This document shows, piece after piece, positions 60,023-64,000 of a stretch of DNA of 64,000 nt; within the stretch, counting starts at the first letter, position 1; the number at the start of each line of letters is the position of its first letter. The notes below the pieces were generated by a model. It had not been told where the DNA came from, made no database searches, and was given only the letters and a program-made list of their open reading frames with translations. The position numbers were made by a program, and so were the translations under genes. The DNA is taken from the NCBI GenBank assembly GCA_963826605.1, contig CAWGXN010000003.1, forward strand, positions 215,585 to 279,584. Direction: 5' to 3'. The DNA comes from an uncultured Alphaproteobacteria bacterium (GTDB taxonomy: Bacteria; Pseudomonadota; Alphaproteobacteria; MPNO01; DASWLB01).

Positions 60023-62536
60023 CCGACCGGGCTCGGCAAGACCTCGGTCATGGCGATCTGGTACCTCGCCCGTCGGGCGGGGGGAACGGTGCCCCGGCGC
60101 CTCGTCTACGTGGTCGACCGGCGAGCGGTGGTCGACCAGGCGACCGACGAGGCGAAGAAGATCAGGAAGAATGCGGCGGATCCCGCGCTGCGGGTCAGCA
60201 CGTTGCGCGGCCAGTTCGCCGACAACCGCGCATGGCTTCAAGATCCCGCGGCGCTACGCCATCGTCGTTGGCACCGTCGACATGATCGGCTCGCGGCTCC
60301 TCTTCTCCGGTTATGGCGTGTCGACGCGCACGCGCGCCTACCATGCCGGGCTGCTCGGCGCCGACACTCTCCTTGTGCTCGACGAAGCCCATCTCGTCCC
60401 GCCTTTCGAGCGGCTACTGACGGCGATTGGGCGCGACGACGCGCTCGCACCGCGGGGCGAGGCGCGCCAGAGGGTCGTGCCTCGCTTCCATCTCCTCGGC
60501 CTCTCCGCGACCGGGCGCGAGCACGAGAGGGGGACGGCCGTCTGTCCGGCTCGAAGCCGCCGACCGGGCCGATCCCATCGTGGCGCGGCGCCACGGCGCG
60601 TCGAAGCGGCTGGTTCTCCGCCCAGGCGATGACAAGCGCTTGGCGAACCGGCTCGCCGAAACCGCGTGGGAGTTGGGGGGCGGGGATGGCGGCCCGCCAG
60701 CCCGCGTACTGGTTTATGTCAACAGCCGGGATGTGGCGGACGACGCGGCCGAACGGATTCGGCGAGACAGCGAAAAAGGCGAAGCGCGACATCCTGCCCC
60801 CGGAGCTGCTCGTCGGCGCGCGCCGCGTCCACGAACGGGAGCGGGCCGCGAACGTCCTGAGGGAGTTGGGGTTCACCTCGGGCGGCGCCAGGCCCACGAA
60901 GCCCGCCTTCGTCGTCGCGACCTCGGCCGGCGAGGTCGGCATCGAATGGACGCCGATCACATGGTCTGCGACCTGGTGCCGTTCGAGCGCATGGTCCAGC
61001 GGCTCGGGCGCGTCAACCGGCTGGGCAACGGCGACGCGCGCATAGACGTGATGGACGCGGTCTCGGAGCTGCCTGCCTCACGAACAGGAGGCGGCGCAGC
61101 GCTGCCGCGAGCTTCTCGATCGCGCTGCCGCGCCACGCCGATGGCAGCTTAGACGCGAGCCCGGCGGCGCTCGGCAGCATTGCGATCCGCGCACAGCGAG
61201 GCCGTCAAGTCGGCGACCACTCCGGCGCCACTCTATCCCGCCCTAACCCGGCCGCTGGTCGAGGCGTGGTCGATGACCTCGCTCGCCGAACATGCCGGCC
61301 GGCCTGAGGTCGGGCCCTGGCTGCGCGGCTGGGATGACGAAAAGCCGCAGGCGACGCTGGTCTGGCGCACTTGGCTGCCGGTGCGCGGGGCGCCGCCCGC
61401 GAGCGACCAGGAGATCGCCGAATTCTTTGATGCAGCGCCGCTGCACCTGACCGAGAGGCTGGAGACGGAAGGCTTCCGCATCCGTGACTGGCTGATCGCT
61501 CGCGCCCGGAAATTGATGGAAACGGCGGACGCGCGTGCGACGGCCCTGGTTCCGGACGACGTGCCGCCGCCGCTGGCCGGGCGAACGGTCGTTGCGTTCG
61601 TTCTGGGTGCGCCGGGTGCGGCGCGGCCGCTCACGCTGGCCCAACTCGCAATGTTCGGCGAGACCAGTGGCCGCAAGGATGCGCTCCTGAGAGAAATCTC
61701 CGGTCAGACGTTAGTGCTAGATGCGCGACTAGGCGGTGTGAATTCAGGCGGACTCTTCCAGAAGGATTCGACCGAGCCGGCGCGGACGCCTGATAACGAC
61801 GAGCAGTGGGAGAAGCAAATCGGCCATCGGATCCGCAGCGTTGCTCCGGACGCGCCCGAGGCGGAAGCCGACTGGCGCAAGCCATATGTTTTCGACATTC
61901 GCCGCGACGGAGAGGGGAATCCGCTACGCCAGCTTCGGGTGGAGAAGTACCGGGACAGCGGCCGATACGGAAGATGACCGTGCCCTGTCGCCGCGCCGGG
62001 ACCAGACGCTCGACGAGCACCAAGACTGGGCGGGGGCGAAGGCGCGAGGCTCTGCTCGAGCGCTGAGCCTTCCCGACGGCGTGGCCGAGCGCCGTCGTGC
62101 TCGCGGCGCGACTTCACGACGAAGGGAAAAGGGCAGAGCGCTGGCAGCGCGCCTTCAGCGCGCCGCGCGACGGCAACATCTACGCCAAGACGAAGGGGCC
62201 ACTCCGGCGCAACTTCCTCGACTGCTATCGCCACGAGTTCGGCTCGCTGCCATACGTCGAAAAGAGCAAAGAATTCCATGATCTGACGGATGAGTTGAAG
62301 GACCTGGTTCTCCACCTTGTCGCCGCCCATCACGGGCGGGCGCGGCCGACCATCGAGACGGCGGGCAGCGACGATGCCCCGCCCTCGGCGCTCGCCGGGC
62401 GGGCGCGCGAGGTGGCGCTGCGCTTCGCGCGCCTGCAGAAGGACTGGGGGCCGTGGGGCCTCGCCTGGCTCGAGGCGTTGGTGCGCGCGGCGGACCAGCA
62501 GGCCTCCCGCGAGAACGACAAGCGAGGGAGGCGTGA
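60023..62536 (+). pseudogene. cas3: type I-G Cas3 helicase-nuclease (helicase first, HD domain last). N-terminus is lost in the T run and there are at least 8 frame changes.
   Basis: Motif I PTGLGKT at the T-run edge, AIVVGTVDMIGSRLLF, motif II LDEAH, LSATG, VVATSAGEVGI, ERMVQRLGRVNR, DASPAAL...WSMTSL, and C-terminal HD motifs LHDEGK, YRHEFGS, AAHHGRARP. Segments sit in frames 2,3,1,2,1,..,1,2,3. Confidence 0.8.
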
Positions 62537-63476
62537 TGGCGGAGCGTCCATCCCGGTCGACCTGTTCAACCCCGGCCAGGTCTTCGCCTGCCTCGGCTTC
62601 CTCGAGGCGGCGGAGATTTTGCTGGGCGACGCCGAAGGCGGATTCGACTGGTCGGACGAGGCGAACGTGCGCTTCCGCCTCCGCGCCGCGGGCGAAGAGG
62701 ATCCCGTCTCCGCGGTGCTTGAATTTCTGGCGGCGGCAGAAGTGCGGTCGTTGGGCTCCACTCGGATCGCTGATGCGCTCGAAGAGCGCGAAAGATGTGC
62801 CAGACGACGACACTGTGAGGACACCTTGAGGCAGACGGTGAACTGGCGTTCGAGTTGTCGCCACCCTTTCCTCGACCAGGCAGCAGACCGGATGGCACTT
62901 CCGAGTGCGCTCGTGGGTGAGGGCCGGCAGTCGTTCGATTCGACTATTGGGGCGACGAGTCCAGCCGCGACAACGTCAAATTCTAGGCGGGTAACGTCGG
63001 CTGACCGGATAGCACGAGCCATGTTGCGGGGAGTGCGCCGAAGCCCGCAAGAATAAGACAGAAGTGAAGCAGTCGATCTCGTGACTCGGGATACCAACTT
63101 TGGAGCGCAGATAGGAGCACCGTAAATTCGGGCCGTTCGCTCTGCTACGCCAATGGGCGGCAGCTTCAGTTTCGACTCGCGCGGGGCATGGACTTCCGCT
63201 CGATGCCGGCTATTCGCCAAACGACCACAGAACATCAAGGTCGGCTCTCACCCGTCGTCGAGTTGATGGCCGCTTGGGGCTTGAGCACGCCCGACCCGCT
63301 GACTACCGACGGCCGCCAAGTGCGGTACCTGACGTGGGGCGGAGACCCTGCCAGCCGATATTGGCCTGCGCGCCGCACTGGGCGGCATGCCGATTTCCGT
63401 TTTCCGTCAGCATGTTTCGGGTTGACGCTTGGACTGGTCGGGCAAGAAAATAAGGTCGTGACGTTTGCACGAGTAG
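62536..63476 (+). pseudogene. gene in the Csb3/Cas8 position of a I-G operon, multiply frame-broken, identity uncertain
   Basis: GGAGG RBS and ATG overlapping a TGA (TGATG). IPVDLFNPGQVFACLGFLEAAEILLG, YWGDESSRDNVKF, FDSRGAW, LDAGYSPNDH and VVELMAAWGL are scattered over three frames. Confidence 0.4.
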
Positions 63477-63488
63477 GGAGACTCAGAC

Positions 63489-64000
63489 ATGAACGAGACT
63501 CGACCTCGACGATGACGCCATCAATAGCTGGGCGGACGATTCTCCGGGCCCGTCGCGCTGCACCTCAAGCAGAAGCTGGTCCCGGTGGAGGGCGAGGGCG
63601 CGGTGATCTTCCCGCCGACCTATGCCGATATCGGCTACAATATCGACGAGCTTTCGGACGGCACGAAGGTCGCGACCATCGACAGCGTCGGCGCCCAGGC
63701 CAACCGAATCGAGCCGATCTTCAAGAGCCCGCCCTACGACGCGCTCGTCCCGCAGATCGACATCGCCTACGGCAACGAAAAGCGCATCTCGATCCTCGAG
63801 GCCGGCCACCGCCTTGGCGACGCCATCGTGCGCTGTGTCGGGAAAGAGGACGGGTTCGACCTGCGCGAGGCGGCGCAATCGGCCTTTAAGACGCTTCCTC
63901 GAGCGCAACGACGCATCCGAGATCGCGAAGCTCGCGCCGACATCGCTGGTCTTCGGCGCCTGGGATTCGCGCGACACCCAGGCGAAGCTTCCGCGCATCG
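63489..64000 (+). pseudogene. cas7: type I-G Cas7 (Csb1), 3' end beyond the window, at least 3 frame breaks
   Basis: GGGAG RBS plus ATG. Hand translation gives [31 protein letters not shown]...[15 protein letters not shown]...[11 protein letters not shown], then [23 protein letters not shown] in another frame. Not in the ORF track, which lists no ORF in this frame. Confidence 0.7.

Follow-up and report, generated by a model that had tools for sequence, protein, structure and literature searches.

A type I-G CRISPR-Cas locus (CRISPR standing for short palindromic repeats that are clustered and regularly interspaced) begins close to the right end of a 64,000-nucleotide stretch of DNA from an uncultured alphaproteobacterium and continues beyond it. 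The stretch as a whole, hereafter the window, corresponds to G000:C3:215585-279584, G000 being this genome (4.48 Mb in 6 contigs, from a high-GC host of ~70% GC), and its contig runs for a further 18.2 kb past the window end. Positions above 64000 are extended coordinates, obtained by adding 63415 to the position in the downstream part of the contig (L001). The locus is a complete, canonical type I-G system, including adaptation genes and a repeat array, in the order cas3g, cas8g2, cas7g/csb1, csb2 (a Cas5-Cas6 fusion), cas4g-cas1g, cas2, leader and array, and it is carried by an 18,044-bp site-specific integrative island with a tyrosine integrase at one end. Families were identified with NCBIfam on open frames and with a six-frame profile search across the whole genome, and all six cas genes are covered by family matches. 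The cas genes that begin within the window are:

60023 to 62534, plus strand: cas3g, helicase N-terminal and HD nuclease C-terminal; 8-11 frameshifts, 0 in-frame stops
62535 to 63489, plus strand: cas8g2, the GSU0052/Csb3-type large subunit; 11-12 frameshifts, 2-3 possible in-frame stops
63489 to 64000 and on to ~64576 (L001:1161), plus strand: cas7g/csb1; 6-7 frameshifts

A preliminary description, made from the window alone, had assigned the genes in view to type I-G, with the Geobacter-type order of cas3, a GSU0052-type gene, csb1 and csb2 and a Cas3 in which the helicase precedes the HD domain. The family matches agree on each point. TIGR02621, the type I-G Cas3 model, matches in six collinear pieces lying in different frames (60023-62510, model positions 38-854), which total ~459 bits, above the cut-off of 400 that none of them reaches alone; model positions 1-37, the N-terminus, fall under a run of T residues described below. 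The HD model TIGR01596 matches the C-terminal end of cas3g, and the domain order is therefore helicase, then HD. For cas8g2, TIGR04106 matches from 62544, where model positions 2-72 alone score (84 bits, cut-off 125), and the remainder of the gene is visible solely via frameshift-aware alignments to relatives. After frame correction its amino-acid identity is 57% to the orthologue in L025, the closest full operon. On contig_3040, a metagenomic sister of the island, cas8 is divided into two pieces, to which the identity is 80% and 66%; these pieces themselves total 159.6 bits with TIGR04106. TIGR02570 (Cas7g/Csb1) scores 81.2 bits against a cut-off of 38 in a match that starts at ~63552 and passes the window end, and the product is 81.5% identical at the amino-acid level to the intact 307-residue Cas7 of contig_3040.

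Extension downstream, as the preliminary description had advised, recovered csb2, cas4-cas1, cas2, the leader and the array. Csb2 is matched by TIGR02165 with 157.4 bits at positions 1-234 and 76 bits at positions 394-491 (cut-off 45). The fused cas4-cas1 is matched by NF049935 collinearly over model positions 1-513, the best piece scoring 374 bits and none reaching the cut-off of 560; with the fused L025 protein it shares 72% identity over 638 aligned residues, and the corresponding figure for cas2 is 75%. From 60023 to 68875 the six mapped genes directly adjoin each other, which leaves no room for a separate cas11, cas5 or cas6. Profile searches of the genome found no other I-G locus, no Cas3g match was found in the three same-genus genomes used for comparison (G001, G002 and G003), and scans of genome and metagenome contigs with the Cas1 fragment returned no relative above 79% amino-acid identity.

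A leader of 228 nt separates cas2 from the array, which spans 69103-71580 (L001:5688-8165) and comprises 34 repeats of 36 bp, CTCTCCGCGGCTTCGTCGCCGCGGCCTCATTGAAGC, and 33 spacers. The preliminary description had seen no tandem array between 53.8 and 64 kb, and none was found there; the statement holds only because the window stops at 64000. The repeat is CRISPR-DR16 of Rfam, and its end, ...GGCCTCATTGAAGC, recurs in about 90 related I-G arrays. Identical copies make up 31 of the 34 repeats; two others carry a single substitution and the terminal one is degenerate, all three standing at the far end. Such progressive degeneration of repeats distal to the cas2-side leader is normal array polarity. 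The uniformity of the 31 repeats was considered as an argument against sequencing error and dropped, like contexts not being independent under systematic error; one-period slips of reads within so periodic a sequence would leave clean repeats and blurred spacers. Spacers measure 36-41 nt here (mean 38.1) and 27-41 nt in contig_3040, the family norm being ~36 nt, and the opposite shifts, long here and short there, suggest opposite indel biases in two noisy assemblies. No self-target of the spacers was found in the genome, where the best partial matches (14-23 nt) are at chance level, and comparison of the spacers with a phage collection gave no significant match (E >=0.2), the spacers themselves being indel-laden.

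Type I-G systems are characterised by the absence of Cas11, a Csb2 that is a Cas5-Cas6 fusion, several Cas8g variants and a Cas4-Cas1 fusion (PMC9638904). The locus resembles the Geobacter sulfurreducens GSU0051-GSU0058 layout in gene set and order, in its short Cas8g2, in its Cas4-Cas1 fusion, in the lack of cas11 and in a 36-nt repeat ending ATTGAAGC. It is unlike that layout in lying inside an integrase island bounded by attachment (att) sites and in that every gene is frame-broken as deposited. The I-G system of Thioalkalivibrio sulfidiphilus has been studied biochemically and structurally, covering crRNA (CRISPR RNA) processing by Csb2, the Cas7 backbone, and nicking and unwinding by Cas3 (PMC9638904). 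It belongs to the same subtype and differs in its large Cas8g1/Csx17 and in the order csb2-cas7-cas8g-cas3, compared with the short Cas8g2 variant and Geobacter order found here; a Thioalkalivibrio locus (L082) is among the Cas1 relatives, at 55% identity. By analogy with known I-G systems, Csb2 would cut the pre-crRNA at the repeat hairpin, an effector of Cas7g, Cas8g2 and Csb2 would find DNA flanked by a PAM (protospacer adjacent motif), Cas3g would unwind and nick the target, and Cas4-Cas1 with Cas2 would insert new spacers at the leader end.

The CRISPR-Cas system takes up about two thirds of the 18-kb island, in which the integrase is followed by several family-less open reading frames (ORFs), a replication initiator, the T run, the cas operon and the array. 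The remaining features of the island are:

53810 to 53837: attL, 28-bp direct repeat TTGCCGCGCGCCTGAGGGAGGGTCAGGC; the exact 28-mer occurs twice in the genome and nowhere else in it
53954 to 53988: GCTACCC / GGGTAGC cluster, candidate arm-type integrase sites, with more copies at 71793 and 71805 near attR
54018 to 55286, plus strand: tyrosine integrase, 422 amino acids, intact; PF13356 (Arm-DNA-bind_3), PF22022 (Phage_int_M) and PF00589 (Phage_integrase)
55389 to 56249, plus strand: island ORF, 286 amino acids; no Pfam, PHROG or NCBIfam match
56879 to 57616, plus strand: phage-type replication initiation protein (phrog_1408, E 4e-18)
58342 to 60022: poly(T) run, 1,681 nt, masked or artefactual; hides the start of cas3 and ~1.5 kb upstream of it
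71882 to 71909, extended (L001:8467-8494): attR, 28-bp direct repeat TTGCCGCGCGCCTGAGGGAGGGTCAGGC, a perfect copy of attL

Replication initiator excepted, no ORF between the integrase and the T run has a Pfam, PHROG or NCBIfam match. At the position of the poly(T) run, the sister contig_3040 holds 1,815 nt of ordinary sequence, in which no recognisable family was found besides the N-terminus of Cas3. A second poly(T) run of 4,491 nt lies elsewhere in the genome (G000:C2:40610-45100), and both runs sit within lower-GC, island-like DNA; both were treated as masked or artefactual.

That the cas module is the cargo of an integrase element, as had been proposed, is backed by the flanking 28-bp repeats, by an empty site in a congener and by contig_3040, an independent contig that equals the insert. 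In G001, the flank carrying the acs gene runs straight into the sequence found here from 71882 onward, through one core copy identical at 26 of 28 positions and placed directly after the same terminator hairpin as in this genome. The G001 site is thus the empty attB. GCTACCC motifs cluster at both ends of the island, five of the seven copies in the insert lying within ~200 bp of an end, and judged by this placement they may be arm-type sites bound by the integrase. The integrase had also been described as P4-type. Its domain architecture is indeed P4-like, but NCBIfam PRK09692 scores 91 bits, below its cut-off of 434, and the target is intergenic, the core following a terminator hairpin, rather than a transfer RNA (tRNA) gene; no tRNA or other Rfam RNA was found at either island end, and the integrase is therefore P4-like in domain architecture only. 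Such an enzyme would move the whole CRISPR-Cas package between genomes.

Beside the att site there are signs of local rearrangement. An adenylate/guanylate cyclase gene (window 52476-53762) lies between acs and attL in this genome and in G002, and is missing from that place in G001 and G003, where the best cyclase match is on another contig.

The same site is occupied differently in G002, where an 11.65-kb insert lies between similar cores (G002:C6:337688-349341; loci L209 and L210). Over its first ~580 nt, the integrase gene of this insert shares 85% identity with the one described above, an IS21 element (IstA, IstB) lying just beyond that point, and both islands have in common the final 200 bp at the right end of the G002 insert. 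Its cargo is an AI-2E transporter and a peptidoglycan-binding protein, with no CRISPR-Cas. A related integrase with different cargo indicates that the site is used by an island family whose cargo is variable. Elsewhere, four I-G loci among the Cas1 relatives (L030, L060, L017 and L146) have tyrosine integrases within 10 kb, at ~30% identity to the integrase here, and carriage of I-G systems on islands with unrelated integrases may be recurrent.

Integrase islands that have att repeats and carry an entire CRISPR-Cas system have been described in Vibrio (PMC5109276, PMC6360697). The present island is like these in carrying an entire CRISPR-Cas system and its array as site-specifically integrated cargo that is present or absent among close relatives. 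The Vibrio islands differ in being larger and of type I-F or I-E; the island here is of type I-G, 18 kb long, equipped with a phage-type replication initiator (Rep) and inserted at a non-tRNA site in a ~70% GC host. The kind of element is accordingly already known, and what is particular to this case is the I-G subtype, the small Rep-bearing island, the shared non-tRNA attB and the mosaic formed by two copies of the island.

The second copy is contig_3040 of the metagenome assembly ERZ25039483 in ENA (18,069 bp; loci L204 and L205), which corresponds to the island end to end (53835-71881). It was detected through the island ORF at 55389-56249 only, the sole relative of which among 5.8 billion protein clusters is on this contig. 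Its array is built of the identical 36-nt repeat, again in 34 copies, and holds the same set of spacers in unchanged order, and the ends of the two copies also agree; for spacers 1-8 the matches have z 4-9.5, and among the remaining 25 spacers 13 are still best on the diagonal. Its cas7 (307 amino acids) and csb2 (770 amino acids) are intact and above their curated cut-offs, and it has fewer frameshifts than the copy here.

Could the island be a replicative element, either the satellite of a phage or an integrated element of plasmid type, able to excise, to replicate from an origin of its own and to spread CRISPR-Cas as a hitch-hiker? Its small size (18 kb), the stand-alone contig that equals the insert and the phage-type initiator (phrog_1408) are in keeping with this. 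Further, the ORF of the initiator contains a 12-nt tandem repeat, GGAAGGGAACAG, in 3.8 copies (57310-57356), which may represent iterons marking an origin. However, among the visible ORFs and on contig_3040 no gene for packaging, for capsid redirection, for a primase or for transfer was recognised, several of those ORFs being family-less and ~1.7 kb being hidden by the T run; a search of the same material for phage-satellite packaging or capsid families found none. Moreover, of the 28 core bases that a circular attP should carry, 25 are missing from contig_3040. Because its ends are the insert borders and most of the core is absent, the contig fits an assembly-graph bubble of presence and absence better than a circle. 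A self-replicating element appears rather unlikely; bubble or circle, the island behaves as a discrete unit.

Divergence between the two copies is strikingly uneven along the island, as the following mismatch values against contig_3040 show:

integrase-Rep arm: ~1%
cas3: 17-30%
first 250 nt of cas8: 4.4%, an abrupt drop at the cas3/cas8 border
cas8 and cas7: 10-19%
csb2: 8-14%
cas4-cas1 and cas2: 3-6.5%
after the array: 1.5%

The integrase-Rep arm is 98-99% identical between the copies, the figure being 98.2% where a single value is given for the arm as a whole. The differences fall mainly at third codon positions, and the ratio of nonsynonymous to synonymous divergence (dN/dS) is 0.24-0.43 (~0.27 for cas3), so that these are real alleles under purifying selection and not noise. 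Synonymous divergence (dS) falls from 0.6-0.75 in cas3 to 0.40 in cas7, 0.23 in csb2 and 0.08 in cas1-cas2. Given that the arrays nevertheless hold the same spacers, the simplest account is that the cas3-cas8-cas7 interference module was recently swapped by recombination between related islands, for example under anti-CRISPR pressure; the chance of this is perhaps even, and the reading is held at moderate confidence since both sequences are noisy.

The reading frames of the operon are extensively broken as deposited. Frame changes were counted with a frame-change-tolerant protein-to-DNA aligner, using L025 as the reference and repeating the alignment with the contig_3040 proteins, which gave the same picture; in control runs on intact loci the aligner made 0-2 false frameshift calls per gene. 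About 50 frame changes were found across the cas genes in 8.85 kb (5.6 per kb). Of these, 25 fall in the three genes that begin within the window, which confirms the earlier view that frame correction was needed. With the L025 reference the genes are distributed as follows:

cas3: 8 frame changes; 56.5% amino-acid identity after correction
cas8: 11 frame changes; 57% amino-acid identity after correction
cas7: 6 frame changes; 51% amino-acid identity after correction
csb2: 10 frame changes; 55% amino-acid identity after correction
cas4-cas1: 13 frame changes; 72% amino-acid identity after correction
cas2: 2 frame changes; 75% amino-acid identity after correction

The identities after correction are high enough for the frame-change calls to be taken as real. 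Further, the public gene call on this 297,799-bp contig is a 283-residue Cas1 fragment, and the frameshifts are therefore present in the public record.

These ~50 frameshifts are best read as consensus errors of an error-prone long-read assembly rather than as pseudogenisation, to which a probability of about 80% may be given from comparison with the rest of the assembly. Damage of a similar kind is seen in conserved core genes: rpoB is in two pieces (at least two frames) and rpoC in five (at least four frames) at G000:C1:1665003-1673292. Among 48 sampled core genes, 12 are frame-broken relative to G001, with 0.26 frame changes per kb, and marker completeness is 78.7%, compared with 93-98% in congeners of like size. 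By a hidden Markov model of GC phase, the cas locus ranks within the highest 1.6% when the genome is taken in windows of 8.8 kb, and ~13 other regions equal or exceed it. Hot patches of the genome, for example C1:1263001-1272000 and C5:223001-232000, reach 5-8 frame breaks per kb. The two hot regions examined are conserved core DNA, 84-89% identical to the congeners and carrying dus, trkA, ruvC, yebC, tolQ and ymdB; they hold 66-73 non-triplet indels per 8-9 kb in G000, the corresponding number between G002 and G003 being 18. Most of the G000 indels are 1-nt insertions outside homopolymers (insertions to deletions 57:16 and 47:19), and a single dus gene has 8 frameshifts at 91% amino-acid identity. 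The cas locus, with 32 one-base and 18 two-base skips, is similar to the hot core regions in density and insertion bias. The proposal that the system is degenerate is therefore not supported, since rpoB, rpoC and further core genes that are conserved show similar damage in this assembly.

Several observations nevertheless weigh against an assembly origin of the frameshifts and in favour of a cas operon that is truly pseudogenised, a decaying CRISPR-Cas system beside an intact integrase and array. The density of frameshifts in the operon, being in the top 1.6% of the genome, is far above the sampled background of 0.26 per kb, and the adjoining integrase (1.27 kb) has none, so that the damage is uneven within the island. 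The middle of cas8g2 is lower in GC, has lost its codon periodicity and contains one well-aligned Tyr-to-stop change; these anomalies could be real damage, the stop being possibly genuine. Moreover, the patchiness of the errors is itself without explanation. However, neutral decay that produced 50 indels should have brought many nonsense codons, and after correction in-frame stops are absent from five of the six genes and number at most three in total. The 31 identical repeats also speak against decay, as does the spacer set shared with contig_3040, whose cas7 and csb2 are intact, and conserved core genes of the assembly carry indels at a comparable density and with a similar insertion bias. 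Genuine pseudogenisation of the operon is thus improbable, and consensus error stands as the preferred account of the broken frames.

The idea that the island bears an array-less, interference-only module that has been repurposed, which drew on the lack of any visible array or adaptation gene within the 64-kb window, is refuted by the sequence 0.6-7.6 kb past the window end, where the contig continues, still within the att-bounded insert, with csb2, cas4-cas1, cas2 and the 34-repeat array.

Collectively, these observations carry a caution and a use. The frame-broken genes of this assembly are not evidence of pseudogenes, and any finding in this genome of the 'degenerate', 'repurposed' or other pseudogene type needs read-level support. 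With its borders defined, the island offers a cleanly bounded case of a whole I-G system and its array as the cargo of a small island, which is useful for studies of the horizontal spread of CRISPR-Cas systems.

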